A stretch of DNA of 64,000 nucleotides from Elusimicrobiota bacterium (lineage in GTDB: Bacteria; Elusimicrobiota; UBA8919): contig JBBAAR010000001.1 of assembly GCA_041658185.1 (NCBI GenBank), positions 44,405 to 108,404 of the forward strand, given 5' to 3'. The notes beneath the pieces were generated by a model. It searched no databases and was not told where the DNA came from. It saw nothing but the letters and a program-made list of their open reading frames with translations. Positions 9,582-62,000 of the stretch are shown here, piece by piece (position 1 is the stretch's first letter; every line of letters starts with the position of its first letter). Position numbers and translations under genes: made by a program.

Positions 9582-9607
9582 GAAAAATTGTACCTGTCCC
9601 TTTTTTT
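9582..9607 (+). repeat. REP-type motif GAAAAATTGTACCTGTCCCTTTTTTT (copy a)
   Basis: The same 22-26-nt motif recurs at 37901, 58430 (inverted), 59191 and 61975. Core GTACCTGTCCC at 9590..9600. Confidence 0.8.
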
Positions 9608-11104: not shown

Positions 11105-11326
11105 TTAATCCTCTTTCAGGGCGGATTTTTCTGCGAAAGTTCTGTCGCGCATTGACAAAGCACCCGAGAAACATTTTTGGACGCAAATGCTGCAGCATAT
11201 ACATTTTTCCGCATCTGTCACAGGATGTTTGTCTTTATCAAGCGAGATTGACTGATACGGACACCTTGAACAATTACCGCAAATGAGATATATATCCGTA
11301 TTGCAATTTGTGATATCCGATTTTCT
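11105..11326 (-). pseudogene. displaced, diverged copy of the last ~73 codons (2x[4Fe-4S] tail) of the DPD-like gene
   Basis: Translates (minus) to RKSDITNCNTDIYLICGNCSRCPYQSISLDKDKHPVTDAEKCICCSICVQKCFSGALSMRDRTFAEKSALKED*. The intact gene reads ...KKISSCDTDVCLICGNCSRCPYQSISLDKDKHPVTDAEKCIGCSICVQKCFSGALSMRDRTPEEKSALKED*. There is no upstream coding continuation. Confidence 0.8.
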
Positions 11327-11919: not shown

Positions 11920-14424
11920 CTAATCCTCTTTCAGGGCGGATTTTTCTTCGGGAGTTCTGTCGCGCATTGACAAAGCACCCGAGAAACATTTCTGGACACA
12001 GATGCTGCATCCGATACATTTTTCCGCATCTGTCACAGGATGTTTGTCTTTATCAAGCGAGATTGACTGATACGGACATCTTGAACAATTACCGCAGATA
12101 AGACACACATCCGTATCGCAGGATGAGATTTTTTTCACGGGCGTCAAATCCATAAAACCGGTAATCGGTTTCGGCAGCGCAATACCAATCAATTCTTTCA
12201 TTGATTTTATTCCGCGCTCTTTCATCAGGTAACTGGTGCCGTTGACAAGTTCATCAAAAACTCCGTAACCGTGTTTGGTTACAATGGTGCAGAACTGGAC
12301 CGTTTTTACTCCGAGCGCAAGAAAATTCATCGCCGATTTGTAATCCATAGGACCGCCGTTGCCGGAAACCGCAACACCCAAAGAAGATACGCTTGCAAGC
12401 GTGAGATAACTTATCGGAGTTACCCCGTCGCCGCTCATACCGACGACAATGCCTTCTTCCCATTCCTTTTTATTGCCCGGTCTGAAACACATCGTCGGAA
12501 AAGTATTCGCCAGAGTTATTCCGGCTTTTTTGTTCGGATATTTAGCAAAAACTTTTTTGATAGCATTCGCAATCGGGACTATGGACGTAACCGCAGCCGT
12601 AAGTTTGAAAAGTTTCGGGATTTCCGGGTCGCCGACCTCCATCACCCAGTCAATTATTTTTGCAGTCAGCGCGGCATTCTGCGAAACAATGTCGCCCTCA
12701 GTTCCGTCACCGCCCTGCGGGCAGGAAAGCGAATATTCTATTCCCATAACGCCGGACGCCTCAAGTTTTTTTGTATTTGACTGCCAGCCCTTTTTATCAT
12801 TTTCATCATTGCCGGTAACAGGCCCGCCGGTTGAAGCCATCGTCAGACGGTCGGGATATTCTTTAACCAGTTTTTGAATTTCCTTTACCACCCTGTCAAG
12901 ATGATGACCCGAAACATTGTCGCAGTTCCCGTAAGTCAAATCATTGAAAGCATGCATATATTCGCCGGGGATGTGAATAGGCACGTTGTCAAACGAGGTC
13001 TTCATTATGCCGCCCGACCAACCCGCTTCGTACGCTTTTTTCATCTGGTCGTAACCATCGGAAGGAGGTGCTGCGGAAAGCAAAAACGGCGTTGAAATTT
13101 TTCTGCCGAAAAAGTCGGTTTCAAGAGACACAGGAATTTGCGTGTACCCCTTCAGCACAACATCGCTTTTCACTTTATTTTTGAAAACAGGTTTTTTCAA
13201 CCCATTGATGTATGCATCAATTTCCACTGCCGTATTTTTTCCTGCGGCAGTCGCTTCCACGACGGTAGTCGGACCCTGTACGGAATCGCCGGCATAAAAT
13301 ACGGATGGGTTATCTGATTTTTCCTTTTTAGAACGAGCACCGATTGCAATTATTACCGTTGATACATCGTTTCTGACCTGATTTGTGCCCGGCACTTCTT
13401 TTATATCTTTGAGATTAAATTTTACGCCTTTTGGAAGCGAAACTTTTACCGTCTCAAGACCTGAAATATCTTTGCCTTTTTTAAGAATTGCCGTAACCCG
13501 CGTCCTTCCCGTTATTTCAATATTGTTTTCAAGAAGTTCATTCATCTCTCTGGGCGTCAGCGGCATTTCGCCGACAGTTTCCAGAGCGAGCATTTCAACA
13601 TTTGACGCGCCGCCTGCGGATTTCGCTGTCATCGCAGCGTCTGCGGCAGTCGCGCCGCCGCCGATAACCGCAACCTTGCCTTTAAGTTTATATTTTTTCG
13701 GATTTTTCAGATAATCCAATCCGACAATTGCAAGGTCTTCATTTTCAATACCCGCTTTTATCGGCTCGGTAAGACCTGTTGCCGCAAGAACTGCGTCATA
13801 GCCTTTTTTTAACAGTGTTTCCAGATTTTCTATCTCTGAATTTAATTTTATGTTTATATCGCCGAGTGTTGTCAGGAATTTTAGATCCTCTTTAAGCATC
13901 TTTTTTTCTAACCGGTATTCGGGAATCAGATTGCTCATTCCGCCTGCAAAATTTTCTTTTTCATAAATGTCAACTTTATAGCCGAGAGAACCGAGAACGG
14001 ACGCAGCGCCCAAACCGGCAGGTCCCGAACCTATTATCGCAACTTTTTTCCCGTTCGGTTTCGGCTTGGAAAATTCAGCGAGCCCGCCCAACTCCCTGGC
14101 TTTTTTTACAATTGTCGCCTGGACGGCAGGAATATTCACCGCAGAATCAAATTTTTTATGAACGCAGGCGGCAACACAAAACCTGTCGGGGCAGACCATG
14201 CCGCAGACGCCGCCGAACGGATTGTTTTTCATTATTTGGGCGGCAGACCTTTTTATATCCGAATTGCCGAAAACCCTTGCAGCCATAATAAAATCAGCCG
14301 CCGAACAGTCGCAGGGACACTTCTCCTTGCAGGGTTTCTCCTCGCAGAACTCGCATTTCGCAAATTCATTTTTTAATTGCGCATCCGTCAAAAAAAGCCC
14401 GTCATAAACAGATTTTTCAGCCAT
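11920..14424 (-). CDS. dihydropyrimidine dehydrogenase-like fusion (GltD/PreT-like FAD/NADPH module + PreA/DHODH-like FMN barrel + 2x[4Fe-4S])
   Basis: N-terminal Cys cluster CEFCEEKPCKEKCPCDC. Dinucleotide folds VAIIGSGPAGLGAA and VAVIGGGATAADAA. FMN domain PFLLSAAPPSDGYDQMKKAYEAGWSGGIMKTSF and LSCPQGGDG. C-terminal CLICGNCSRCP ... CIGCSICVQKC. Confidence 0.85.
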   Translation of the reverse strand: MAEKSVYDGLFLTDAQLKNEFAKCEFCEEKPCKEKCPCDCSAADFIMAARVFGNSDIKRSAAQIMKNNPFGGVCGMVCPDRFCVAACVHKKFDSAVNIPAVQATIVKKARELGGLAEFSKPKPNGKKVAIIGSGPAGLGAASVLGSLGYKVDIYEKENFAGGMSNLIPEYRLEKKMLKEDLKFLTTLGDINIKLNSEIENLETLLKKGYDAVLAATGLTEPIKAGIENEDLAIVGLDYLKNPKKYKLKGKVAVIGGGATAADAAMTAKSAGGASNVEMLALETVGEMPLTPREMNELLENNIEITGRTRVTAILKKGKDISGLETVKVSLPKGVKFNLKDIKEVPGTNQVRNDVSTVIIAIGARSKKEKSDNPSVFYAGDSVQGPTTVVEATAAGKNTAVEIDAYINGLKKPVFKNKVKSDVVLKGYTQIPVSLETDFFGRKISTPFLLSAAPPSDGYDQMKKAYEAGWSGGIMKTSFDNVPIHIPGEYMHAFNDLTYGNCDNVSGHHLDRVVKEIQKLVKEYPDRLTMASTGGPVTGNDENDKKGWQSNTKKLEASGVMGIEYSLSCPQGGDGTEGDIVSQNAALTAKIIDWVMEVGDPEIPKLFKLTAAVTSIVPIANAIKKVFAKYPNKKAGITLANTFPTMCFRPGNKKEWEEGIVVGMSGDGVTPISYLTLASVSSLGVAVSGNGGPMDYKSAMNFLALGVKTVQFCTIVTKHGYGVFDELVNGTSYLMKERGIKSMKELIGIALPKPITGFMDLTPVKKISSCDTDVCLICGNCSRCPYQSISLDKDKHPVTDAEKCIGCSICVQKCFSGALSMRDRTPEEKSALKED

Positions 14425-22931: not shown

Positions 22932-23003
22932 GACACGGAAAAGACAGATAAAGATTTATCTGTGTAATCGCCTTTGAAAATCTGTGTAATCTGTGTTAAA
23001 AAA
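22932..23003 (+). repeat. family-E intercistronic element, copy E1
   Basis: gACACGGAaaaGACAGATAAagatTTATCTGTGtaatcgcctttgaaAATCTGTGTAATCTGTGTTaaaaaaATG. Hairpin ACAGATAA/TTATCTGT at 22944..22963. There is no SD before the ATG at 23004. Confidence 0.65.
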
Positions 23004-24898: not shown

Positions 24899-25744
24899 AT
24901 GAGCAATAATACCGTATATCTTCCTAAGAATCTACCTGAAGCGTTAAAAATACTTAATAACAGTAAGGAAAAGATTTTATTGCTTGCCGGCGGCACTACC
25001 ATTCTAATAAATCCAACCGAGAACGCTTCATACATAGAACTGGACGGACTGAATCTGGATTACATTAAATCAGACAAAAACAACATTTCGGTCGGAGCAA
25101 TGACAACAATCGGACAATTATCAGTTTGGCCGCAAGCCGCAAAATATTGGAACGGTTTAATCCGGAAATGTGCTATTACAATAGCATCAACGCCTAACAG
25201 AAATATGATTACGGCAGGCGGCAATATAGTTGGCTTACGACCATGGTCGGCGCTCGCGGGAGTTCTGCTTTTGCTGGACGGTAAAATAATCACGGCAAAA
25301 GGAAAAAATTATCCGGCAAAGGAATTTTTTTCCAAACTTCCGAAAACCATATTGGGAAAAGATATCGTTACTGAAATCAGAATTCCGCTGGACAGCAAAG
25401 ATTTAACCGGCGGATGGAAAAAGTTTTCTCTTACCGATACCGATTATCCTATTTTAAGCATGGGCGTACTTTATAAACTAAAAAACAAAAACACAATTGA
25501 AAACATAAAAATAGCCGTAACCGGACTGACAGTTCTTCCTCAGAGATTTATAAAAACCGAGAAACTGCTTAAAAACAAACAACTGACGGCTCATACGATA
25601 AAATTGCTGATAAAATCACTTCAAAACGAAGCGGTTATCGGCGCGGACATCCGTGTTGCATCAGAATATAAACGGGAAATATTAGGAGCAATCTTTCTTG
25701 AATTAGTCGCTCGCAAGCAAATTTCTTTGGTCGCTCCAAGATAA
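24899..25744 (+). CDS. xanthine-dehydrogenase-family FAD-binding (medium) subunit, enzyme 1
   Basis: CoxM/XdhB-like LLAGGTTILIN, GAMTTIGQL, ASTPNRNMITAGGNIV. The last 12 codons (VARKQISLVAPR) are encoded by an R-type repeat fragment. Confidence 0.85.
   Translation: MSNNTVYLPKNLPEALKILNNSKEKILLLAGGTTILINPTENASYIELDGLNLDYIKSDKNNISVGAMTTIGQLSVWPQAAKYWNGLIRKCAITIASTPNRNMITAGGNIVGLRPWSALAGVLLLLDGKIITAKGKNYPAKEFFSKLPKTILGKDIVTEIRIPLDSKDLTGGWKKFSLTDTDYPILSMGVLYKLKNKNTIENIKIAVTGLTVLPQRFIKTEKLLKNKQLTAHTIKLLIKSLQNEAVIGADIRVASEYKREILGAIFLELVARKQISLVAPR
25706..25744 (+). repeat. R-type repeat fragment forming the 3' end of the FAD-subunit CDS
   Basis: GTCGCTCGCAAGCAAATTT (25706..25724) is identical to the 5' end of element R3 (reverse complement of 11082..11100). 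Confidence 0.65.
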
Positions 25745-25758
25745 AAAAGGTTAAAAAA

Positions 25759-26229
25759 ATGAAAATTGAAACTACCGTAAACGAGCAGAAAAAAGAACTC
25801 AATGTAAAAAATTATACCGAACCTCTGCTTGATGTTTTAAGACGGCATAATTATCTCGGCGCAAAAGAAGGTTGTCGGCAGGGGCAATGCGGGGCGTGCG
25901 TCGTGCTCGTAAACGGTTTGCCTGTTAATTCCTGTATTTATCCGGCGGGGCGGACAAACGGCAAAAAAATCACAACTATAGAGGGACTCGGCAAACCGAA
26001 CAACCTGGATAAAATACAGCAGGCATATCTGGAAACAGGGGCCGTCCAGTGCGGATACTGCACGCCGGGAATGGTATTAAGCACCAAAGCGCTGCTGGAT
26101 AAAAATTCTATGCCGACGGAAGATGAAATAAAACTTGCATTAGACGGCAATCTTTGCAGATGCACGGGATATGTAAAAATTATTGATGCGGTGAAACTTG
26201 CGGCAAAAAGATACAAGAAAACTTCGTAA
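25759..26229 (+). CDS. xanthine-dehydrogenase-family [2Fe-2S] (small) subunit, enzyme 1
   Basis: CRQGQCGACVVLVNG and CGYCTPGM...CRCTGY cluster motifs. Confidence 0.9.
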   Translation: MKIETTVNEQKKELNVKNYTEPLLDVLRRHNYLGAKEGCRQGQCGACVVLVNGLPVNSCIYPAGRTNGKKITTIEGLGKPNNLDKIQQAYLETGAVQCGYCTPGMVLSTKALLDKNSMPTEDEIKLALDGNLCRCTGYVKIIDAVKLAAKRYKKTS

Positions 26230-26347
26230 CCACAGATGGACGCAGATGGACACAGATAAATTCAAAAGATAAAAATGATTTGTAGTTTTTTATCTGCGTA
26301 AATCGGCGACTGTCCCGCTTGCGGGATGTATCTGCGGTTAAAATTTT
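26230..26347 (+). repeat. family-E intercistronic element, copy E2 (long form)
   Basis: TAAccacagatggacgcagatggacacagataa...ttatctgcg...[tcccgcttgcggga]...gtatctgcggttaaaattttATG. Three tandem 10-nt words are followed by complementary words. No SD. Confidence 0.7.
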
Positions 26348-28666
26348 ATGGCAAATACTAAATTCAGTCAAGTCGGAAAAAGCAAAATAAAGGTTGACGG
26401 ACAGGCGCTTGTCACCGGCCAGCCGGTGTTCGTAGGTGATTTTATCATACCGGGCATGCTATGGGCGAAAGTTTTATGGAGTCCGCACGCCCACGCCAGA
26501 ATAAAAAAAATAGACACATCCAAAGCTGAAAAATTGCCAGGCGTAAAAGCCGTTCTCACATATAAAGACGTCCCGCGAATTCCGTTCACGACAGCAGGGC
26601 AGGGTGCGCCGGAGCCGTCGCCATATGATTCTTTCATATTAGATAATAAGGTAAGGTTCGTCGGTGATAGAGTGGCAGCGGTCGCGGCGGAAACGGAAGA
26701 AATCGCAAACGAGGCGCTGAGACAGATAAAAGTTGACTATGAGATTTTGGAGGCGATACTTGACCCGAAGAATTCCAGAAAAAAAAACGCCCCTGTAATC
26801 CACGACGAGAAAGAAGCCCACATGCCGCTGCCTCTTAAATATGACCCCAAAAAAAATATCTGCGCTCATATAGATATAAAAATCGGCGACGCGGAAAAAG
26901 CCTTGAAAGAATCTGACTATGTTATTGAGCATGAATACGATATTCATTACGCGCAGCACACTCCGATAGAGACACATATCTCAACCGCATATTTTGACGT
27001 TCACGGGAGAATGGTGATAATAACAAGCACTCAAGTCCCGTTCCACGTGCGCAGAATAGTCGCAAGATCGCTGAATATTCCGGTACAAAAAATCAGAGTG
27101 ATAAAACCGCGTATCGGCGGCGGTTTCGGAGCAAAACAGGAAGTTCTTATTGAGCCGTTAGTCGCCGCACTTGCGATGAAAACCAATCAGGCGGTATGCT
27201 TAAAATACACGAGAAGCGAGGAATTCGTATCCTCAAGATGCAGACATCCTCAGATAATAAATCTTAAAACCGGCGTAAAAAAAGACGGCACATTTTCCGC
27301 AATAGATATGAGAATACTTCAGAATAACGGAGCGTACGGTTCCCACAGTTTAACGATACTTTGCAACACGGGCAGCAAAATTCTTCCGCTATTCAAATGC
27401 AAGAATGTAATCTTCAACGGAGATGTTGTCTATACAAATCTTCCTGTTTGCGGAGCATACCGCGGCTACGGCGCTACCGAGGGATATTTCGCGATGGGAA
27501 TCCAATTGGACGAAATGGCTGATAAAATCGGCGTTGATATCGTGAACTGGTGCAAAAAAATTCACATAAAAGAAGGCGAGACATCACCCGTTTTTGCGGC
27601 GCTCGGCGAAGGAGTTGAAGGCGTTGAGCAGAATATTTCTTCCTGCGGACTTGATAAATGCATTGAATTGGGCGCGAAAGAAATCAACTGGTACCAAAAA
27701 AGAAGAAAAAAACAAACAGGCAGATACAGACGCGGAGTCGGAATGGTAATAATGATGCAGGGCTCGTCCATTCCGGAAATAGATATGGGCGCCGCATTTA
27801 TGAAAATGAATGAGGACGGCTCGTTTAATCTGCTTATAGGCGCAACGGACCTCGGAACCGGCTCAGATACTATTATGGCGCAGATTGCAGCGGAAGTTCT
27901 GGCTACTGAGACGGAAAAAATGATTGTTTATTCGTCCGATACCGACTTAACGCCTTTTGACGTCGGGGCATATGCGTCAAGCACAACATATCTTTCAGGG
28001 CAGGCGGTAATAAAAACGGCTCAAAAAGTAAAAGAACAGATACTGAAAGTCGCCGCGGAAATGCTTAAAGAACCGCTGGAAAATCTTAAAGCGGAACATT
28101 CTACGGTGATCGGGAAAAACGGAAAAGTTACCTTCTCTGAAATCGCAAATTATTCGCTTTACACAAAACATCAGCACCAGATAATGGCAGGCGAGTCGCA
28201 CATCACCCATAAATCCCCCCCGCCGTTTTCGGCTCACTTTGGCGAAGTGGAAGTAGATACTCTGACCGGCAAAGTGCGGGTTATAAAATATGTTGCGGCG
28301 GTGGATTGCGGAACTGCAATTAACCCGATTTCGGCGGAAGGTCAGACGGAGGGCGCGGTTTTAAACGGCTTGTCATATGCGCTCTGCGAAAGATACATAT
28401 TCAACGAAAAAGGCAAGATGTTAAATCCCAATTTTAATTATTACAAAATTTTTTCCACGATGGACCTGCCGGAACTTAAAACGATTTTGGTGCCGACTTA
28501 CGAACCGACCGGACCTTTCGGAGCGAAAAGCGTTTCCGAAATAGGAATTAACGGCCCGTGTCCGGTGATTGCCAATGCTATATATGACGCCGTCGGAGCG
28601 CGTCTATATAATGCCCCTTTCACGCCGGATAAAGTGCTTGCGGCAATAAAAAAAATCGCTCGCTAG
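26348..28666 (+). CDS. xanthine-dehydrogenase-family molybdopterin-binding (large) subunit, enzyme 1
   Basis: GGGFGAKQE, CGAYRGYGATEG and GAKSVSEIGING motifs; 772 aa. Confidence 0.9.
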   Translation: MANTKFSQVGKSKIKVDGQALVTGQPVFVGDFIIPGMLWAKVLWSPHAHARIKKIDTSKAEKLPGVKAVLTYKDVPRIPFTTAGQGAPEPSPYDSFILDNKVRFVGDRVAAVAAETEEIANEALRQIKVDYEILEAILDPKNSRKKNAPVIHDEKEAHMPLPLKYDPKKNICAHIDIKIGDAEKALKESDYVIEHEYDIHYAQHTPIETHISTAYFDVHGRMVIITSTQVPFHVRRIVARSLNIPVQKIRVIKPRIGGGFGAKQEVLIEPLVAALAMKTNQAVCLKYTRSEEFVSSRCRHPQIINLKTGVKKDGTFSAIDMRILQNNGAYGSHSLTILCNTGSKILPLFKCKNVIFNGDVVYTNLPVCGAYRGYGATEGYFAMGIQLDEMADKIGVDIVNWCKKIHIKEGETSPVFAALGEGVEGVEQNISSCGLDKCIELGAKEINWYQKRRKKQTGRYRRGVGMVIMMQGSSIPEIDMGAAFMKMNEDGSFNLLIGATDLGTGSDTIMAQIAAEVLATETEKMIVYSSDTDLTPFDVGAYASSTTYLSGQAVIKTAQKVKEQILKVAAEMLKEPLENLKAEHSTVIGKNGKVTFSEIANYSLYTKHQHQIMAGESHITHKSPPPFSAHFGEVEVDTLTGKVRVIKYVAAVDCGTAINPISAEGQTEGAVLNGLSYALCERYIFNEKGKMLNPNFNYYKIFSTMDLPELKTILVPTYEPTGPFGAKSVSEIGINGPCPVIANAIYDAVGARLYNAPFTPDKVLAAIKKIAR

Positions 28667-32548: not shown

Positions 32549-32618
32549 ATCAATCCTCCTTTTAACGACAATTATATCTGATTACACAGATTTTTGAACA
32601 CTGATTACTCTCGTTTCT

Positions 32619-32687
32619 AAAAGAAAGTGTTGCATTTTTACTTCAAAATGATTATTGCCAAAATTGTTCAAAGATGGAGAAATCAAA
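32619..32687 (-). repeat. 69-nt conserved upstream element, copy 1
   Basis: 63/69 identical to 36998..37066. Lies 71 nt upstream of the ATG at 32548. Confidence 0.75.
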
Positions 32688-36909: not shown

Positions 36910-36997
36910 ATTAAATACCCGCTAACATCTGAATTTATGCCGACATTATGGCGGCTAATAATCTTTCAAAATTTTTGTCTCTGATTTGTCACCATGT

Positions 36998-37066
36998 AAA
37001 AGAAAGTGTTGCATTTTTACTTCAAAATGATAACTGTCAAATTCGTTCAAAGGTGGAGAAATCAAA
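36998..37066 (-). repeat. 69-nt conserved upstream element, copy 2
   Basis: 63/69 identical to 32619..32687. Lies 89 nt upstream of the ATG at 36909. Its minus-strand reading contains TTGACA. Confidence 0.75.
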
Positions 37067-37722: not shown

Positions 37723-38055
37723 TAAAGTAAGGTTTTACCACAACCAACACTTTTCAGTCGGCCAAAAAAGAAAGAACTTTTTGGCACGCCGTAGTATTTT
37801 AGGGTATTTATTTTTGGGCTGGAGTTTCTGCGGGTAGACCGTGCCGCACCAGTAAGATAGGGAAAACCGGACGGGCCTATTTCAATCATGTAATCGTTGA
37901 GAAAAATTGTATCTGTCCCCTTTTTCCCTAGGAATAAGGATACCGCAGGCGGTAATTGATTTTTTCAATTCTTCCAATTTTTCTTTGTCTTCTCTCCCTC
38001 TTAAAAGCGGACTGGCAAAATTTAATTTATCCAGCCGGATTTGCACAAATTCCAT
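37723..38055 (-). pseudogene. small ParB-like (ParBc/sulfiredoxin-fold) gene interrupted by a REP insertion
   Basis: ATG at 38055 gives MEFVQIRLDKLNFASPLLRGREDKEKLEELKKSITACGILIP. Reading then runs into the REP copy (..REKGDRYNFSQRLHD*). A shifted frame continues IEIGPSGFPYLTGAARSTRR..., with a ParB-box-like Y-L-x-G-x-x-R. Confidence 0.45.
37901..37928 (+). repeat. REP-type motif, variant GAAAAATTGTATCTGTCCCCTTTTTCCC (copy b)
   Basis: One mismatch in the core (GTATCTGTCCC). Lies inside the ParB-like reading frame. Confidence 0.75.
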
Positions 38056-39818: not shown

Positions 39819-39910
39819 TTTTTTATTTTTATTTTCAAGCGAGCGAGTGAAAAGCAAACTTGTTTGTTTTTCCGAGTGAGCGCTGAAAACAAAGGGTTAA
39901 ATACCCTTTA
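39819..39910 (-). repeat. family-R4 repeat, copy a (follows a KK-stop)
   Basis: The core ttcaagcgagcgagYgaaaagcaaacttgtttgtttttccgagYgaRcgctgaaaacaaag is shared with 48961..49046, with 3 mismatches. Confidence 0.8.
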
Positions 39911-40783
39911 TTTCTTTTCTACTTTATCGTTTTGTTTGATATCTTTTCCGTCTACGATTTTTGCTTTTGAATATTTTTCCTTTACCTCGGTTATTTTTAT
40001 CTCGCCGATTTCAGAGTCCTCGCCGCCCAGCGACTCCCCCGTTTCCGGGTCTTTCATTTCCTCGCCTTTTCTTATTACCTTAAAAACATCGTTAACTTTG
40101 ATATCTGCGTTTGTTCCGCCGTTGATAGTTACCGACCCGTCCGCGACTTTGATGATGGCACCTCTCCATCTTCCGCCGAGATTTTTGGTTATCTTTTCAA
40201 CTGCGTCTTCAACGGCGCCTCTGGTTGCCTGTCCGATAAGAGAAGTTGCAAATTCCGGGCTTCCTACTTTAACATCCGTCGGGAACAGGTCTCTGTTGCT
40301 TAAGCCGACTGCTTTCGTACTTTTTTTACACTGGCCTGTCGCGGCAGTGGTTATTTCAGCCGTTGTTGTGTTAATTACTCTGATATCAAGCCCTACCGAT
40401 GCCGTATGGTTTATCACCTGAACGCCAAAAGCGCTGGTTTCGGAAGATTTGAGTCCGTATTCATTAACGCTTCCTATAATCATGTACTCTACACCAAGAA
40501 TCTTGCCGACGGCAGCAGCTGTCTGAGCGGTTATTGTCCCGGACAAACCGAGTTTTTGTTCCTCCATAACTTTATCCAACTCCGCTCTTTCTATTACTTT
40601 GAATTTTTTTGTTTCAACTAATTTTGTGACTAACATATCCGCAGTACCGCCCTCAAGATCATTCAACGACCCACGGTATGCTGTCTTATTCTCAAGTTTC
40701 ATAACAGCAATGCGGGGTAAAGCAGCAAACACCTGCGATGATACAAAAAACGACAAAACTACGGATAACATCACTCTATTCAT
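39908..40783 (-). CDS. CsgG/LpoB-like periplasmic protein
   Basis: Signal peptide. PRIAVMKLENKTAYRG...TADMLVTKLVETKKFKVIERAELDKVMEEQKLGLSG...GKILGVEYMIIGSVNEYG is CsgG-family-like. Confidence 0.65.
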   Translation of the reverse strand: MNRVMLSVVLSFFVSSQVFAALPRIAVMKLENKTAYRGSLNDLEGGTADMLVTKLVETKKFKVIERAELDKVMEEQKLGLSGTITAQTAAAVGKILGVEYMIIGSVNEYGLKSSETSAFGVQVINHTASVGLDIRVINTTTAEITTAATGQCKKSTKAVGLSNRDLFPTDVKVGSPEFATSLIGQATRGAVEDAVEKITKNLGGRWRGAIIKVADGSVTINGGTNADIKVNDVFKVIRKGEEMKDPETGESLGGEDSEIGEIKITEVKEKYSKAKIVDGKDIKQNDKVEKK

Positions 40784-48960: not shown

Positions 48961-49046
48961 TTTTTTATTTTCAAGCGAGCGAGCGAAAAGCAAACTTGTT
49001 TGTTTTTCCGAGCGAACGCTGAAAACAAAGAGTTTACTATCCTTTA
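48961..49046 (-). repeat. family-R4 repeat, copy b (follows a KK-stop)
   Basis: See 39819..39910. It begins at the stop codon of the HEAT-repeat gene. Confidence 0.8.
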
Positions 49047-49919
49047 TTTTTTTGGGCTTGCTAACTTTTCTATTGCCTGTTTAACTGCCCCGATAACTTC
49101 CGTATTTTCATCTTCAACCATGACCGCTTTTTTAAGCGGCTCAATTGCCGATTTATCCCCTATCTCTCCGAGTGCTTTTGCAGATTCAGCTCTTACTGTC
49201 GGGTTAACATCAGTAAGATTTTTTATCAAATTCACAACGGCAGATTTAAGTTTCAGCGAGGATACCGATTGAATCGCCGTAAGACGGACGCCTTCGGCTT
49301 CGTCGTTAAGATGCTCAACTATAATTGATTGTACCTCCGGTTTATCGGAAAAAACCATCAGTGTTTTCAATGCCGTAATCCTAACGACAGGACGACCGTC
49401 GGTAAGAAGTTTTTTCAACGAAGGAATGGAAGAGTCGTCCTTAAATTTTGCAAGCGAATTTGCACTATCAATAATCATTCCGCCGTCAGCGTCGTTAAGC
49501 GATTTGAGCAAATGCGGAACTGCCTGTTTATCGCCGATTTCACCGAGTGAAACAGCGGCGCACCGGCGGACCTCTGTATTTTGGTCTTTGAGCAAACTGA
49601 TTAAAGGTAACACAGCATTTTTATTTTTTTCGGTTCCAAGAGAAATTGCGGCGTTTCTTCTTATGAGCCAGTTTGCATCTTTTAGTTTTTGAACATTTGT
49701 CCTTTTGTCGGTTTTCGGTTTTTCGGTTTTAACGGGCGCTGGCGTTTTTTCGGCACGAGCCGGAGCGGTTACATGCCCCGTAGATTTTTTTGCTTCATAT
49801 TTAGGAGACACTTTGGTTACAGCATCTTTTTTCTCTTCTGCGGAAAGGACAGTGAGAAGTAAAAAGTGAAAAGTGAAAAGTAAAACCATAAACTGAGAAA
49901 TCTTCTGTCTGTTTTTCAT
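49044..49919 (-). CDS. secreted HEAT-repeat protein
   Basis: Signal peptide MKNRQKISQFMVLLFTFHFLLLTVLSA. PBS-lyase-type HEAT repeats (WLIRRNAAISLG, TEVRRCAAVSLGEIGD, PTVRAESAKALGEIGD). I moved the start from 49991 to ATG 49919 to remove the overlap with the upstream gene. Confidence 0.65.
   Translation of the reverse strand: MKNRQKISQFMVLLFTFHFLLLTVLSAEEKKDAVTKVSPKYEAKKSTGHVTAPARAEKTPAPVKTEKPKTDKRTNVQKLKDANWLIRRNAAISLGTEKNKNAVLPLISLLKDQNTEVRRCAAVSLGEIGDKQAVPHLLKSLNDADGGMIIDSANSLAKFKDDSSIPSLKKLLTDGRPVVRITALKTLMVFSDKPEVQSIIVEHLNDEAEGVRLTAIQSVSSLKLKSAVVNLIKNLTDVNPTVRAESAKALGEIGDKSAIEPLKKAVMVEDENTEVIGAVKQAIEKLASPKK
49852..49886 (-). repeat. 5 tandem 7-nt units (GTGAGAA GTAAAAA GTGAAAA GTGAAAA GTAAAAC on +) encoding a signal-peptide core
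   Basis: Encodes LLFTFHFLLLT of the HEAT-repeat protein. Confidence 0.85.
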
Positions 49920-49930
49920 ATTGCCTCCAG

Positions 49931-51307
49931 TTACTCCAACATTTTTTTTGCAATTCTGTTTGTCTTTTCGTAAAGTTTTTGCTCGTCGCAATTTACCAAT
50001 TTTCCATTTTTAACTACTATTTTACCGTTGACTATGGTCGTATCAACAATATCCGAATCGCCGCAAAAAAGCAAAGATGCAAGAACATCGTGAATACCGC
50101 CGGCATAACCGATTTTTTCAACGTCAAATAAAACAATATCCGCTGCCTTACCCGACTCAATTGCGCCTATGTCATCCCGTCCTAAAACCTGAGCGCCGCC
50201 GCGGGTTGCCATCCATAAAACATCTTCGGCAGGCATTGATTTTACGCCTGATTTCAAACGATGAACCAAAAGACATGTTTTTAATTCCCGGAGCATATTT
50301 GAGGAATCATTTGATGCGGAACCGTCTACCGCAAGGGAAACGGGGACTCCGTTTTCAATCATCTTTCTTACCGGCGCAATACCGCTTCCTAACCGTAGAT
50401 TTGAAACTGGACAATGCGCAACGCCAGTTTTTGTTTTCCCCATCAATTTTATTTCATCGTCATTAAGATGGATGCAATGAGCAAACCAGATATCATCTCC
50501 TAACCAGCCGACTTTTTCCATATAAGCGAGTGGTTTTAAGTTGTGTTCTTCCAGACAAAATTTTTCTTCATCAATCGTTTCGGCGATATGCGTGTGACAT
50601 TTTATTTTTTTCTTGCGGGCAAAATTTACCGTCTCCTTTAGTAACTCCGTTGTAACTGAAAACGGCGAGCAGGGAGACAGGGCAATCCGGCACATTGAAA
50701 ATTTCTCGGAATTGTGATATTTGTCCACTACCCGTTCGGAGTCCTTCATTATCTCGTTTTCCGTCTGAACCACATCGTCCGGCGGAAGACCGCCTTTCGA
50801 CTGACCTCGCGACATTGAACCGCGGGTAGGATGGAATCTAATCCCGATTTCCGATGCCGCTTTAATTTCAAAATCCAACAAATCCTTTGGCTGGTTTTTC
50901 GGAAAAATATAAAACTGGTCGGTTGATGTAGTGCATCCAGTCAGCAGCAGTTCACCCAAACCCACAATCGCCGATGTATAAACCGCATCCGGAGTGATAT
51001 TTTTCCAGACGGTATAAAGATATTTTAACCAGTCAAAAAGTTCGGCATCCTGGACTTCCCGGATGTTTCTGTAAAGCGTCTGGTACAAGTGATGATGAGT
51101 GTTGACAAATCCCGGAAGCACAACGCATTTTGAGGCATCAATAATGGTACAGGCAGAAGGCAGCGGGTGTAGGGTGGACGGTAAATTTTTACCGACGAAT
51201 TTTATTTCATTATCTTCTATGAAAATATTACCGCCGGCGATTTTTGTTCTCTTATTGTCCATTTGAACAACAAGTTTTGCATTTTTAATCAGAATGTTTT
51301 TTTTCAT
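49931..51307 (-). CDS. TRZ/ATZ-family amidohydrolase (guanine / 8-oxoguanine deaminase-like)
   Basis: FVNTHHHLYQTLYRNI, HTHIAET, LAVDGSASND. I moved the start from 51373 to ATG 51307 (MKKNILIKNAKLV) because 51310..51391 is repeat E3. Confidence 0.8.
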   Translation of the reverse strand: MKKNILIKNAKLVVQMDNKRTKIAGGNIFIEDNEIKFVGKNLPSTLHPLPSACTIIDASKCVVLPGFVNTHHHLYQTLYRNIREVQDAELFDWLKYLYTVWKNITPDAVYTSAIVGLGELLLTGCTTSTDQFYIFPKNQPKDLLDFEIKAASEIGIRFHPTRGSMSRGQSKGGLPPDDVVQTENEIMKDSERVVDKYHNSEKFSMCRIALSPCSPFSVTTELLKETVNFARKKKIKCHTHIAETIDEEKFCLEEHNLKPLAYMEKVGWLGDDIWFAHCIHLNDDEIKLMGKTKTGVAHCPVSNLRLGSGIAPVRKMIENGVPVSLAVDGSASNDSSNMLRELKTCLLVHRLKSGVKSMPAEDVLWMATRGGAQVLGRDDIGAIESGKAADIVLFDVEKIGYAGGIHDVLASLLFCGDSDIVDTTIVNGKIVVKNGKLVNCDEQKLYEKTNRIAKKMLE

Positions 51308-51309
51308 TT

Positions 51310-51391
51310 TCGTAACCGCAGATACACACAGATTGTCGCAGATAAAATCTTTTTTGAACTTATCCGCGTTCATCTGCGTTCATCTGTGGTT
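51310..51391 (-). repeat. family-E intercistronic element, copy E3 (short form)
   Basis: Minus strand: TGAaaccacagatgaacgcagatgaacgcggataagttcaaaaaagattttatctgcgacaatctgtgtgtatctgcggttacgaaaATG. Confidence 0.75.
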
Positions 51392-53011
51392 TCACTTTTT
51401 AGATAATTCCTGCAGTCTTTCGGTTGCTTTTTTAGCCCACTGGGTATCACTATATCTTTTTTTCACAATTTCATAATTTTGTTTTGCATCTTTAATAAAT
51501 CCTATTTCTTCCGATGCGCGGGCAGACATGTAATGGGATTCCGGGACATATTGTGAATCGCTGAAAAGATAAACCACTTTCAGATATTCTCGCGCAGCTT
51601 CCTTGTATTTTTTCTGCATGAAATAACAATCCGCTGCCTTTTTCTGCGCAATAGCGCCCATATCCTCGTCCGCTGTGCTCAACAATCCGTTCGTCTTCTC
51701 GGCCTTGCCGATACCTTTATTTTTAGAAATGCTTGCGGCAAGTTCATAGTTCTCAATCGCAGCAAAATAATCGCCGCTCCTTTCAAATTCGCTGCCCCGC
51801 CTAAGATACATTTCAGCAGCAGCAAGCGATTTCGGATACCTGTAAAGTATCTCGCTGTAGCATTTCTCTGCCTCAAGTGTATTACCAGTTTTTTCATAAG
51901 CAACGCCACTGTTATATTTCATCATCGCAAAAATTTCCGAGTCGGATGTTTCAAGTTTAAGTCCGATATTATAACTCTCAATTGCTTTGCGATAGTCAGA
52001 CGACTCAAGGTAACAATTTCCGATATAAAACATCGCCTCGGCATAATTTTTTGATAACGGATATTCTTCAATAAACTTTTGAAATGAATTTATGGCGACA
52101 GCCGGCACGCCGGTTTTGTAGTAAATTTTAGAGCGCAAGAAATTTGACTCTTCCGCAATATTATGCTCTGGAAAATTAGATGCAATCTGTTCAAAATATT
52201 TTGCGGCTTTATCATAATCTTTTTTTTTGTAAAAATATTCGGCAACTTGATAGGTAATTTCCGGCGAGAGTTGCGACTTCGGATATTTTTCGGAAAACTG
52301 GATGTAGACCGCCATTGCATCAAAAACGGCTCCCTCAGATTCATATACGCGGCCGACGGAGTAAAGCGCAAACTCTGCCGGCGTTGATGCAGGATATTTT
52401 GTTAAAACTTTTCTGTATGAATTTCTCGCCTGCTTGTATTTTTTTAGATTGAAATAACTGTCGCCGAGACGAAGCCATCCGTCGGCAGCATAATCGGATT
52501 TCGGATAATTCCGGACAAGCGCGGTAAAAGAAACGGCAGCTTTTTTAAAATTTTTGTTTTTGAAGTGGAGCATCCCGACCCAGTATTGTGCATCGTCGGT
52601 TATTTTTGTACCGGGGAACCGTTTTACAAAATTCAAAAAATAGTCGCGGGCTTTTTCGTAACTGTTTTTTTTATAATAAACAAGTCCGATACCGAGCCGC
52701 GCAAGCAAGGATTCGTTTGTATTGGGAAATTTTTCTGTTATGCGAACATATTCTTTAAGTGCGTCATCAAGTTGCAAAAGTTCCGACATAGAATCCGCTC
52801 TATAAAGATATGCCTTTTTCAGAAAATCTTTATCTTTCTTTGTAGCGGTAGAAATTACGGCATCAAAAGACTCAATAGCAGATTTACAGTTGCCATCTTG
52901 AAACTGTTTAACGCCTGTATTATATATCTGTTCAATGTGTGACTGGGCATAAAGACAGCAGATAGCGAATAGGAAGTAGAAAATAGCAAGAAACAATAAA
53001 CTTTTTTTCAT
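51392..53011 (-). CDS. secreted TPR-repeat protein
   Basis: Signal peptide, then more than 10 TPR-like units (e.g. AQYWVGMLHFKNKNFKKAAVSFTALVRNYPKS). Confidence 0.7.
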   Translation of the reverse strand: MKKSLLFLAIFYFLFAICCLYAQSHIEQIYNTGVKQFQDGNCKSAIESFDAVISTATKKDKDFLKKAYLYRADSMSELLQLDDALKEYVRITEKFPNTNESLLARLGIGLVYYKKNSYEKARDYFLNFVKRFPGTKITDDAQYWVGMLHFKNKNFKKAAVSFTALVRNYPKSDYAADGWLRLGDSYFNLKKYKQARNSYRKVLTKYPASTPAEFALYSVGRVYESEGAVFDAMAVYIQFSEKYPKSQLSPEITYQVAEYFYKKKDYDKAAKYFEQIASNFPEHNIAEESNFLRSKIYYKTGVPAVAINSFQKFIEEYPLSKNYAEAMFYIGNCYLESSDYRKAIESYNIGLKLETSDSEIFAMMKYNSGVAYEKTGNTLEAEKCYSEILYRYPKSLAAAEMYLRRGSEFERSGDYFAAIENYELAASISKNKGIGKAEKTNGLLSTADEDMGAIAQKKAADCYFMQKKYKEAAREYLKVVYLFSDSQYVPESHYMSARASEEIGFIKDAKQNYEIVKKRYSDTQWAKKATERLQELSKK

Positions 53012-58392: not shown

Positions 58393-58462
58393 GTTTTTTT
58401 AGTAAAATTTAAAAAAGGGACATAAAAAAGGGACAGGTACTTTTTTGTGTTTGTGTTTTCGT

Positions 58463-59152
58463 TCATTTCGCAGCCGCGCTTTTCTTCTTTGGTCTGCCTT
58501 TATGCGACCACAAAGATTTTAAACCCGATACTTTCATTGCTTCCACAAATTGTTCGCTCCCATAAGCACCAGATCTAAAAAATCTTTTCAATTGACGTTT
58601 TTCTTTATGTCCGGATGCGACAAAATCACGATATAATCGTCGTCTTTGTTCCGCAGTATCGCCCAACCCAAGATACTCTGGACTCAAATCCGTTATACCA
58701 TCATTTTTTCCTAATGCATACACCGTATAACTAGACCATTTGTAATCTTCCGGTTTACTGACCATTCCCGCTCTTACCGCATTTAGTTCAATATACCGCC
58801 CGCATTCAAGTAGATATCTACCGCTTTCAATAATAAAATTTTTAAATCTTTCCTCCCAAAGATGCCCGGTCCCACCATACTTTTTTCTGTAATATTGCGC
58901 ATAGAGAAGTTTTATACTTTTCAGTGCATCGCTCAATTTTTTGCCGGTTTCCGACTCAATTATTGCGTGAAAGTGATTGCTCATCAATTTATAATGATAA
59001 ATTTTAAGTCCATATCTTCGTTTGTAATACTTCACTAAACTTAAAAACTGCTTAAAATCTTTTTCATCGTGAAAAACTACTTGGCGATTATTCCCTCTGC
59101 TTAAAATATGGTAAATCCCGTTTTCTATCGTGAATCTTGCTCTACGCGGCAT
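58463..59152 (-). CDS. REP-associated tyrosine transposase (IS200/IS605-like Y1, RAYT)
   Basis: YHILSRGNNRQVVF, HUH motif LMSNHFHAII, GHLWEERFKNFII, catalytic-Tyr region GRYIELNAVRAGMVSKPEDYKWSSY. Confidence 0.8.
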   Translation of the reverse strand: MPRRARFTIENGIYHILSRGNNRQVVFHDEKDFKQFLSLVKYYKRRYGLKIYHYKLMSNHFHAIIESETGKKLSDALKSIKLLYAQYYRKKYGGTGHLWEERFKNFIIESGRYLLECGRYIELNAVRAGMVSKPEDYKWSSYTVYALGKNDGITDLSPEYLGLGDTAEQRRRLYRDFVASGHKEKRQLKRFFRSGAYGSEQFVEAMKVSGLKSLWSHKGRPKKKSAAAK

Positions 59153-59185: not shown

Positions 59186-59683
59186 TCATAAAAATTGTAC
59201 CTGTCCCCTTTTTCTCAAATCAATATTTTTGCCGCCGAGAAATTCAAAATTGTCAGTTAACGAACCATGAGGAATATTCACTGCATGAGGAGGAACTGCC
59301 TGGTCTTGTGTCAGATGACAAATGTTACCCATGTAATAATAGACACCAATCTTTTCTCCGGAAAATTTATATTGCTCTTCATATAAATTTTTTAAGATTT
59401 TAATTTCCCATAAATCTTTTAAATCTTTAACATTAGCACCCATAGGAGTAGTATGCGCACTTTCTGCATCAAAACCATTACTACCATTTACAATGTCATT
59501 TGAAAATTTAACTATATCCGGATATTCACCAAGCTCTGATAAGAGACTGATAGATTGTTGAGCAAGAGGACCATGTGTATCAGGTAAAACAGCATTCCAA
59601 CCAAATGCTGAAATTTTCAATCTAAATAATATCCAAGGGACTAAAACAAATAGAAATAAAAAATTTCTTTTTTTAATAATCAT
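59186..59683 (-). CDS. secreted zinc-dependent phospholipase C / S1-P1 nuclease-fold protein, probably 3'-truncated by the REP
   Basis: Signal peptide, then GWNAVLPDTHGPLAQQSI (W...H start of the fold), FDAESAH, ICHLTQDQAVPPHAVN. The last 8 codons (KRGQVQFL*) are encoded by the REP copy at 59191..59215. Confidence 0.45.
   Translation of the reverse strand: MIIKKRNFLFLFVLVPWILFRLKISAFGWNAVLPDTHGPLAQQSISLLSELGEYPDIVKFSNDIVNGSNGFDAESAHTTPMGANVKDLKDLWEIKILKNLYEEQYKFSGEKIGVYYYMGNICHLTQDQAVPPHAVNIPHGSLTDNFEFLGGKNIDLRKRGQVQFL
59191..59215 (+). repeat. REP-type motif AAAATTGTACCTGTCCCCTTTTTCT (copy d)
   Basis: Core at 59198..59208. Confidence 0.8.
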
Positions 59684-61107: not shown

Positions 61108-61545
61108 TTATACTAAATTTGTCTTTGAATTCCTATAACAGTTATTTATCAACCCGTCATCTATCTTGTCATTATTATTAGCGTCTATGTCAGGAGAGAA
61201 GTTTTTATCACCGTCTTGAACCTTTACCCATAGTGTATATTCGCCTTTGCGAAGGGCTTCCCCTTTTACTGCACCTGTCCAGTTAATATTAAATTCTCTC
61301 TCCCGATTGAGATTCAGCGGATACCTTTTCGTGTTCAATTTTATCATACCAAATTTTATTATTTTGTCAAAAAAAATCATAGCAATTGTGGAAAAGAAAT
61401 CTTTTTTCACTAATACTAACGGTGTTACTATTGTTTGTTCTGCAACCTCCATCGGCTGAATAAAAGATTTTTCACACCAGTGGCAAATTTGTTCTTCATC
61501 AGGGCAATAGTTCTTACAATGCGAACATTGCTTACTCATATACAT
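61108..61545 (-). CDS. hypothetical protein with N-terminal zinc ribbon
   Basis: CSHCKNYCPDEEQICHWC followed by a hydrophobic stretch and a beta-rich C-terminus. SD GGAG 8 nt upstream. Confidence 0.5.
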   Translation of the reverse strand: MYMSKQCSHCKNYCPDEEQICHWCEKSFIQPMEVAEQTIVTPLVLVKKDFFSTIAMIFFDKIIKFGMIKLNTKRYPLNLNREREFNINWTGAVKGEALRKGEYTLWVKVQDGDKNFSPDIDANNNDKIDDGLINNCYRNSKTNLV

Positions 61546-61560
61546 ACACTCCGTAAAAAC

Positions 61561-61720
61561 AAAAAAGCCAAGTTACCTAAAACAACTGTGCCCAATTATT
61601 GAACACAGCATTATCTTCGGTAACCCGGCTAACTTTTATCCTTCGGCAACTCGGCGAACTCTCAAAAAGTCCCGTGGTTTTGCGTCCCCGACTCGCGTCG
61701 GCTCTGGCTTTTGCCAGAGG
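61561..61720 (-). promoter_or_regulatory. probable GEMM-I (c-di-GMP-I class) cyclic-dinucleotide riboswitch with intrinsic terminator
   Basis: Minus strand: UCUGGC-AAAAGCCAGAG-CCGAC-GCGA-GUCGG-GGACGCAAAACCACGGGAC...GUUAGCCGGGUUACCGAAG. It has a GNRA-capped hairpin, the ACGCAAA(G/A)CC-CGGG core and the AGCCGGGUUACCGA 3' strand. AGCCGGGUUACC (61630..61619) can alternatively pair with GGUAACUUGGCU (61577..61566), which is followed by U6. Confidence 0.6.
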
Positions 61721-61974: not shown

Positions 61975-62000
61975 AAAATTGTACCTGTCCCTTTTTTATT
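61975..62000 (+). repeat. REP-type motif GAAAATTGTACCTGTCCCTTTTTTAT (copy e)
   Basis: Core at 61981..61991, immediately 3' of the uvrA stop. Confidence 0.8.

Follow-up and report, generated by a model that had tools for sequence, protein, structure and literature searches.

A tandem-word palindromic element between the FeS and Mo subunit genes of an Elusimicrobiota bacterium: a probable gene-less member of a repeat family associated with GxxExxY genes

The genes for the FeS and molybdopterin-binding (Mo) subunits of one Elusimicrobiota enzyme are separated by a palindromic element, E2, whose arms are built of tandem 10-nt words. We have identified a widespread family of such arms and demonstrated that they are tightly associated with genes of the GxxExxY family, whether the search starts from the arms or from the protein. 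E2, its clean relative E3 and the decayed E1 are, in our judgement, probably gene-less, non-autonomous copies of a nuclease-associated palindromic selfish element. Throughout, the window means the whole stretch of 64,000 nt that was analysed.

Results

E2 and its relatives in the window

The original prediction described three tandem words, their complements, an inserted hairpin and a final aaaattttATG, and the sequence of 26230-26347 reads exactly so (Table 1). The first word directly abuts the TAA stop of the FeS gene (26227-26229) and, at the other end, AAAATTTT lies between the terminus GTATCTGCGGTT and the ATG at 26348. With an arm profile made from 222 arms taken from other genomes, nhmmer recovered the E2 core at E = 2.7e-10. 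The words and their complements had also been expected to nest into a long interrupted hairpin. RNAfold (-37 kcal/mol, z = -3.7) does pair each word with its anti-word, but the earlier description had overlooked the degenerate anti-word 2, AAATCGGCGA; because this is present, all three words are partnered in the predicted fold and the small extra hairpin occupies a three-way junction. An assembly artefact is excluded, since an independent assembly from another run (L121) has the identical sequence, in a contig that begins inside the element.

Table 1. Positions in the window of E1, E2 and E3, of the parts of E2 and of the genes on either side of E2
Feature	Position	Strand	Basis
E1, degenerate relative (GACAGATAA / TTATCTGTG / AATCTGTGTAATCTGTGTT) between modA and modB	22932..22997	.	
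FeS (2Fe-2S) subunit gene	25759..26229	+	Pfam Fer2/Fer2_2
E2 core (AACC...GGTT), palindromic element without a gene	26228..26339	.	arm profile, fold
E2 left arm, three tandem 10-nt words	26230..26259	+	matches arm consensus
E2 word 1, CCACAGATGG	26230-39	+	sequence
E2 word 2, ACGCAGATGG	26240-49	+	sequence
E2 word 3, ACACAGATAA	26250-59	+	sequence
E2 loop, 30 nt, A/T-rich	26260..26289	+	sequence, predicted fold
E2 anti-word 3, TTATCTGCGT	26290-99	+	pairs with word 3 in MFE and centroid folds
E2 degenerate anti-word 2, AAATCGGCGA	26300-09	+	pairs with word 2 in MFE and centroid folds
E2 extra small stem-loop TCCCGC-TT-GCGGGA, between anti-words 2 and 1	26313..26326	+	
E2 anti-word 1 and terminus, GTATCTGCGGTT	26328..26339	+	sequence, fold
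A/U-rich 8-nt spacer, no SD, unpaired in predicted fold	26340..26347	+	
Molybdopterin-binding large subunit gene	26348..28666	+	Pfam Ald_Xan_dh_C, MoCoBD_1/2
E3, clean copy, three words and three anti-words	51314..51391	.	sequence, fold, arm profile

Within the window, the arm profile strongly matches only E2 (26228-26259) and E3 (51391-51360), both with E values of about 1e-10, and E1 weakly. The 21-mer AACCACAGATGRACGCAGATG occurs twice when up to three mismatches are allowed, against an expectation of 0.01. E3 is located between the stop of a TPR-protein gene (TGA, 51392-51394, minus strand) and the start of an amidohydrolase gene (51307), and its RNAfold structure is also stable (-39 kcal/mol, z = -8.2). 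E3 had been described as E2 without an insert of about 40 nt. The shared 21-mer and the arm profile do place the two in one family, but the difference of 36 nt is not one insert: it consists of a loop that is 16 nt longer in E2 and of the extra TCCCGC-TT-GCGGGA stem-loop, about 20 nt, which is missing in E3. The interiors of E2 and E3 measure 30 and 14 nt and the window has no GxxExxY ORF; thus, both are gene-less members, like the 68-300-nt class described below.

The amidohydrolase gene that follows E3 is affected by the element at the level of annotation. Gene callers start this gene at an ATG inside word 2 of E3 (region 51307-51373, minus strand), giving a protein of 480 aa that gains 22 residues encoded by E3 (MNADKFKKDFICDNLCVSAVTK). 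The true start is likely to be at 51307, which gives 458 aa.

The same junctions in relatives

In L122, the relative whose proteins are 95% identical, the FeS and Mo genes overlap, stop with start, at an ATGA and no element separates them. The FeS/Mo junction is similarly element-free in L123 (85%) and L124 (78%), and in L125 (93%) it is occupied by a different, composite variant, the first-word TGA of which ends the FeS ORF. The modA/modB junction, where E1 is found, is tight and empty in L123, and L122 and L125 have other variants there. At the E3 site, L243 (82%) has no element, L217 (94%) has an E1-type element and L218 (94%) one of the composite type. In this composite subfamily (L125 5850-6000 and L218 2850-3010), outer CAGAT arms enclose an inner hairpin of CACGGAG/CGGAAG words, and the two composite copies, at two loci of one Elusimicrobia genome (L125/L218), are about 93% identical.

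The left end of E2 is a further point of comparison. Its 28-nt sequence CAAGAAAACTTCGTAACCACAGATGGAC, which includes the last five FeS codons (AAG AAA ACT TCG TAA), is identical in the modA-modB copy of L125, and the alignment continues through the loop, about 75% of which can be aligned between the two copies. Copies therefore share sequence beyond the words, in flank and loop, and are homologous, contrary to the suggestion that such elements are repeatedly generated. The other origin that had been suggested, mobility, agrees well with junctions that are empty in relatives of 78-95% protein identity and with the same subfamily at different loci in sister genomes. Taken together, the empty or differently occupied junctions and the near-identical copies elsewhere show that E2 arrived by insertion, at a FeS/Mo junction that was formerly an overlapping one.

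Copies resemble their genome-mates more than their positional counterparts, as would be expected if stop/start junctions were targeted repeatedly or if the copies underwent gene conversion. The occurrence of different subfamilies at one junction in genomes that are about 94% identical could likewise be due to gene conversion and not to transposition. The repeat also breaks contigs. A search for target-site duplications across 137 elements gave no consistent direct repeat, and the sole candidates were A-rich, ATGA-like repeats at E3-orthologous sites. A TA target-site duplication of the IS630 type was weighed and dropped.

E2 is an imperfect palindrome with AAC...GTT ends between co-oriented genes and in this respect recalls an integron-type attC site separating gene cassettes. 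We regard that reading as scarcely credible. It failed on the defining core sites, as the termini (TCGTAAC / GTTAAAA in E2, GTGAAAC / GTTACGA in E3) do not fit RYYYAAC / GTTRRRY; moreover, the flanking genes are subunits of one enzyme that are contiguous in relatives, and the gene-bearing units of the family carry two arms, one on either side, in place of a single attC.

A family of arms in many phyla

An exact search for AACCACAGATGRACGCAGATG in GTDB species-representative genomes returned at least 119 stretches from many phyla, against fewer than one match expected by chance in 596 Gb (simple arithmetic), in line with the expectation that additional copies would exist. The matches listed include Verrucomicrobiota, Planctomycetota, WOR-3, Latescibacterota, Chloroflexota, Acidobacteriota, cyanobacteria (Prochloron, Nostocaceae), Flavobacteriales and Proteobacteria and, among archaea, Methanoperedens. 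Approximately half of the stretches, read in register, have an E3-like architecture. Each arm contains two to four tandem words of about 10 nt, with the core CRCNGAT and the outer end AACC. The left-arm consensus reads AACC-RCAGATGAAC-RCAGATGAAC-RCAGATAA; its reverse complement, ending in GGTT, forms the right arm, and the interior varies. E2 and E3 both have the tandem words and the reverse-complement second arm with its GGTT end. The inverted repeat often runs on into the flanks, which are purine-rich on the left and pyrimidine-rich on the right. All three frames of the consensus arm contain stop codons, and the complement strand contains none; E3 has stops in all three, and E2, with its GATGG words, in only one frame.

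The lengths of complete elements are bimodal, with a gene-less class of 68-300 nt and a gene-bearing class of 418-750 nt. The gene-less copies are mostly found just after gene ends (10 in convergent, 12 in tandem and three in divergent contexts). Scanning metagenomes for the Elusimicrobia-type end TTCGTAACCRCAGATG yielded 120 stretches and nine real elements, none of the nine from the source lineage and one (L409) carrying GxxExxY. Viral contigs yielded only 26 stretches and thus phages are not obviously the main home of the family. A plasmid of Bacteroides finegoldii has a copy after aspD that is unannotated in the RefSeq record. At the gathering score, Rfam 15 had no match at E2 or E3, its sole match in the window being a c-di-GMP-I riboswitch elsewhere, and E-value scans of E2 and E3 gave chance miRNA/lncRNA matches only. 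Open-access papers and bioRxiv contained passing mentions, and we found in them no account of the repeat or of any connection with GxxExxY.

The distribution of the words also bears on their possible role as operators. A phasing of 10 nt sets the words on one face of the helix, and both E1 and E2 lie in the mod/Mo-enzyme operon, as might be expected of a phased array for a host DNA-binding regulator (for example, one that responds to molybdate). Nevertheless, E3 lies between unrelated genes, the same words occur beside unrelated genes in many phyla and the sites are missing from orthologous operons, and so we consider such an array very improbable.

Several other repeats were seen in the collected loci. 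In seven WOR-3 MAGs (L003, L016, L031, L044, L075, L100 and L118) the CAGAT left arm lies inside a longer multi-copy repeat, GGCCTCGGAGGCCGCAACCAAACCCGATGG-arm-TTGAGTCCCGAATCGAAC..., with no right arm nearby. In a distant relative (L219, 2870-2990), a hairpin of ATGCAAA words and TTTTGCG anti-words has the same architecture; it precedes the amidohydrolase homologue, but the gene on its other side is a different one. A second hairpin repeat, GTCATKCYGAGCG...AGCG...GAATC / ...CCTCAGAATGAC, was found in MAGs of several phyla (L122 2560-2660; also L011, L044, L067, L106 and L111), nested in CAGAT elements or beside them.

Arms and GxxExxY genes

In two of the AACCACAGATGRACGCAGATG matches, the left arm runs straight into an ORF of the GxxExxY / PDDEXK_3 family (NCBIfam and Pfam; E about 1e-39). 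When all ORFs in the 119 loci listed were searched with phmmer, five GxxExxY genes were found. Each is enclosed by arms or abuts them, and the order is always arm, gene, anti-arm. For the reverse test, 80 loci from many phyla were fetched through the GxxExxY protein alone, including the isolates Holophaga foetida, Geothrix paludis, Scytonema, Microcoleus and Rhodopirellula as well as archaea. Enough flanking sequence was present in 77 of these, and in 63 of the 77 the gene has a flanking inverted repeat that scores above every shuffled control. Nearly all 63 repeats are of the tandem-word type, with word variants such as CCGCAGATGAAC, CCGCCGATGAAC, CCACCGATGAAC and CGCAAAACACGCAAAAC, and the arms in Holophaga consist of the 9-nt words GGGGATAAA. 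The association of arms with GxxExxY genes therefore appears in both directions of the test. An unbiased screen of all collected loci for small ORFs flanked by inverted repeats gave a similar picture, as 41 of the 63 ORFs that it recovered are GxxExxY. The others include several antisense shadows of GxxExxY, one four-helix-bundle protein and two RAYTs, which serve as a positive control.

The start codon of GxxExxY is often within the first word (CCACAG-ATG-AAC), giving N-termini of the form MNADE.../MNTD..., and 35 of 120 database GxxExxY proteins (about 29%) begin with M[ND][AT]D, their N-terminus being encoded by the arm. By crude ORF calling, 33 gene-bearing copies are co-oriented with both neighbours and five are opposed to both. 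Word type is linked only weakly to protein similarity (identity of 0.604 within types and 0.586 between types; permutation p about 0.01), which counts against claiming direct recognition of words by the protein.

In 81 kb of the source contig there is no GxxExxY gene, and extending the contig by 17 kb revealed neither further copies nor GxxExxY. Approximately 0.7 Mb of loci around homologues of two window genes, many of these loci in Elusimicrobia MAGs, also contained no GxxExxY gene.

A cassette of the same architecture but with another small gene was seen in a WOR-3 MAG (L055, 5860-6345). It encodes a four-helix-bundle protein (TIGR02436, the '23S rRNA IVS protein' family; E = 6e-34), with tandem GTTAGGA words upstream and their complements downstream.

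The GxxExxY protein

GxxExxY (PF13366/TIGR04256) is a protein of about 125 aa with a predicted PD-(D/E)XK nuclease fold, in which D75, E85 and K87 are invariant. The family is large (at least 6,610 clusters at 90% identity). A sequence search of the PDB found no GxxExxY relative. The AF2 model has a mean pLDDT of 91.6 and its Foldseek matches are weak (best E = 1.5e-3, TM at most 0.56). All of these neighbours are PD-(D/E)XK nucleases (Cas4 SSO0001, lambda exonuclease-like proteins, Hjc, tRNA-splicing endonuclease and I-Bth0305I); since they are generic to the fold, no specific mechanism can be read from it. A 2012 survey of PD-(D/E)XK proteins listed the function of PDDEXK_3 as 'unknown' and noted 'multiple transfers' between divisions and domains (PMC3424549).

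RNA structure and the start of the Mo gene

If the hairpin were maintained as RNA, its arms might be expected to carry traces of pairing. In elements oriented by their GxxExxY gene, arm mismatches are of the G-U type in 87 cases and of the A-C type in 73 (p = 0.30). Strong co-variation links the R/Y positions of words with those of anti-words (odds ratios of 35, 4.6 and 38), but pairing partners are no more closely correlated than non-partners and therefore the signal is one of word homogeneity within elements, not of compensatory pairing. Such homogeneity fits repeated protein-recognition words or a homogenising copying process. As the arms have neither pair-specific covariation nor a bias of G-U over A-C, RNA structure as the selected unit is unsupported.

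The original prediction held that E2 takes the place of a ribosome-binding site. It was correct that no SD is present, as the 22 nt before ATG 26348 are without a GGAG-like motif. If E2 were a structured RNA spacer under selection to stand in for such a site and to control expression of the large subunit, a start placed 8 nt past a stem of -37 kcal/mol would also fit, as would the position of E1, E2 and E3, each of which ends 6-8 nt ahead of a start codon. We nevertheless find this reading improbable. By a relaxed test, 30 of the 56 window genes have an SD-like motif and 26 are without one; with about half of the genes lacking the motif, the notion of replacement is unsupported. The Mo gene start is equally SD-poor in element-free relatives, where it overlaps the upstream stop. 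Furthermore, the element is also found in convergent intergenic regions and in dozens of phyla, and covariation lends its structure no support.

Other local signals were considered. An intrinsic terminator (GC-rich stem and T-run) was rejected, as a scan of 25700-26700 found no terminator-like site, and a promoter scan gave nothing persuasive. A leader peptide, encoded by a mini-ORF reading MDADGHR and a stop, was dropped; the TAA of the third word is not conserved among copies. DnaA boxes were also weighed and dropped.

Discussion

The family described here resembles the REP/REPIN-RAYT systems, which are among the closest known to it. As in those systems (PMC3116915), short palindromic repeats are located in intergenic regions just after genes, one small enzyme gene is flanked by inverted repeats, and gene-less copies outnumber gene-bearing ones, with families within genomes and insertion polymorphism. 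The differences are also clear. The enzyme of the CAGAT family has a PD-(D/E)XK nuclease fold (PF13366), whereas RAYT is an HUH/Y1 transposase. CAGAT arms consist of two to four tandem words of about 10 nt, whereas a REP is a single palindrome of 20-40 nt with a GTAG head, and no GTAG-type head was found in the tandem decamers of the arms. Finally, REPs are typically species-specific, whereas the sequence of the CAGAT arms is common to many phyla.

The window itself has a RAYT-like ORF (58463-59152, minus strand), which matches Pfam Y1_Tnp and scores 78.3 bits against NF047646 (cut-off 80). The repeats on either side of it, inverted relative to each other, are of the GTACCTGTCCC type and are not CAGAT words. 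In the window, repeats of this type are at 58430-58440, 59197-59207, 9590-9600 and 61981-61991, with a variant near 37913. This is a separate system of the REP/RAYT type, unrelated to the CAGAT words.

Other known elements share single features with E2. The terminal inverted repeats, the length of 78-112 nt, the lack of coding capacity, the presence/absence polymorphism and the nesting of E2 and E3 are MITE-like. However, no target-site duplication could be defined across the 137 CAGAT elements, and the gene-bearing relative encodes a predicted nuclease of 125 aa, not a DDE transposase, in only about 430 nt. Identity with the end of a known MITE or IS, once considered for E2, thus finds no backing, as there is no transposase cargo and GxxExxY is the sole recurrent cargo. 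The intervening sequences of 23S rRNA in Leptospira and Coxiella contain an S23p/four-helix-bundle ORF (TIGR02436) within long inverted repeats, in sense orientation, with the stem lying in the host transcript. They are similar to GxxExxY cassettes in enclosing a small ORF, in sense orientation, between long inverted repeats; however, E2 lies between protein-coding genes and not in rRNA, and the cargo family is different. In type III toxin-antitoxin systems such as ToxIN, tandem RNA repeats stand beside an endoribonuclease gene. This is like GxxExxY units in that short tandem repeats are placed directly upstream of a small nuclease gene, but ToxI repeats are 36 nt long and direct only, with no inverted partner downstream, and GxxExxY is predicted to have the PD-(D/E)XK fold rather than that of ToxN. 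Gene-less dispersed copies are not known as a feature of ToxIN.

By analogy with RAYT and REP/REPIN, the GxxExxY nuclease may recognise the phased words, or a hairpin or cruciform formed by them, and would drive the copying of both gene-bearing and gene-less copies. Three results speak against this: the source contig (81 kb) and the related loci that were searched contain no GxxExxY gene that might act in trans, target-site duplications were not consistent among elements, and word type follows protein similarity only loosely. E2 itself may be a passive passenger in the mRNA, tolerated for its shape. At the base of the predicted hairpin, the Mo start would come to lie within about 10 nt of the FeS stop, and E2 might be tolerated because it keeps the two adjacent in this way. 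A ribosome terminating at 26227-9 might then open the outer stem and expose the start region, which has no SD, so that translational coupling could survive the insertion.

An alternative is that the hairpin is primary and useful to the host in the manner of REPs, as a protector of mRNA 3' ends, an RNase III site or a decoupler of operons, and that GxxExxY is a secondary homing gene that targets pre-existing hairpin loops. The predicted folds are indeed very stable, the preference of gene-less copies for the ends of genes would suit such roles, and the nesting of other hairpin families in the loops indicates that loops accept insertions. We nevertheless regard this as unlikely. Close relatives lack the element at the same junctions, so that those operons do not need it, and the arms have neither pair-specific compensation nor a sense-strand bias of G-U over A-C. 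The share of GxxExxY N-termini that are encoded by the arm argues for a co-evolved unit rather than insertion into a loop, and a bare hairpin would have no obvious way to cross phyla with about 30 nt conserved.

We therefore return to a nuclease-associated selfish element as the probable source of E2 and E3. A broader version of this reading, to which we assign rather less than an even chance, is that GxxExxY and tandem-word arms make up a hitherto unrecognised class of nuclease-driven selfish cassettes across prokaryotes, with four-helix-bundle cassettes as a sister class. Such cassettes would be passed horizontally between phyla and insert at stop/start junctions within operons, leaving behind gene-less hairpins like E2 and E3 that keep coupling intact.

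If the selfish-element reading is true, GxxExxY/PDDEXK_3, a large family, gains a job, namely acting on the phased-word palindromes that flank it, and RAYT/REPIN is joined by a second partnership of enzyme and repeat. This partnership appears to cross the borders of phyla and domains with its arms of about 30 nt almost unchanged. There are also practical consequences for genome annotation. CAGAT hairpins separate operon genes that would otherwise overlap, give rise to spurious ORFs and to false N-terminal extensions (such as that of the amidohydrolase after E3) and interrupt assemblies, and even the RefSeq records of cultured Bacteroides do not annotate them.

Finally, some features of the window lie apart from the CAGAT elements. 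The c-di-GMP-I riboswitch (Rfam RF01051, 50.2 bits) is at 61616-61718 on the minus strand, upstream of the ORF at 61108-61545. Three further repeats are each present in two copies: one of 209 nt at 90% identity (11106-11314 and 11921-12129), one of 70 nt at 91% (32618-32687 and 36997-37066) and one of 92 nt at 91% (39826-39917 and 48962-49053), the last with a GCGAGCG/CGCTC-type hairpin of its own.
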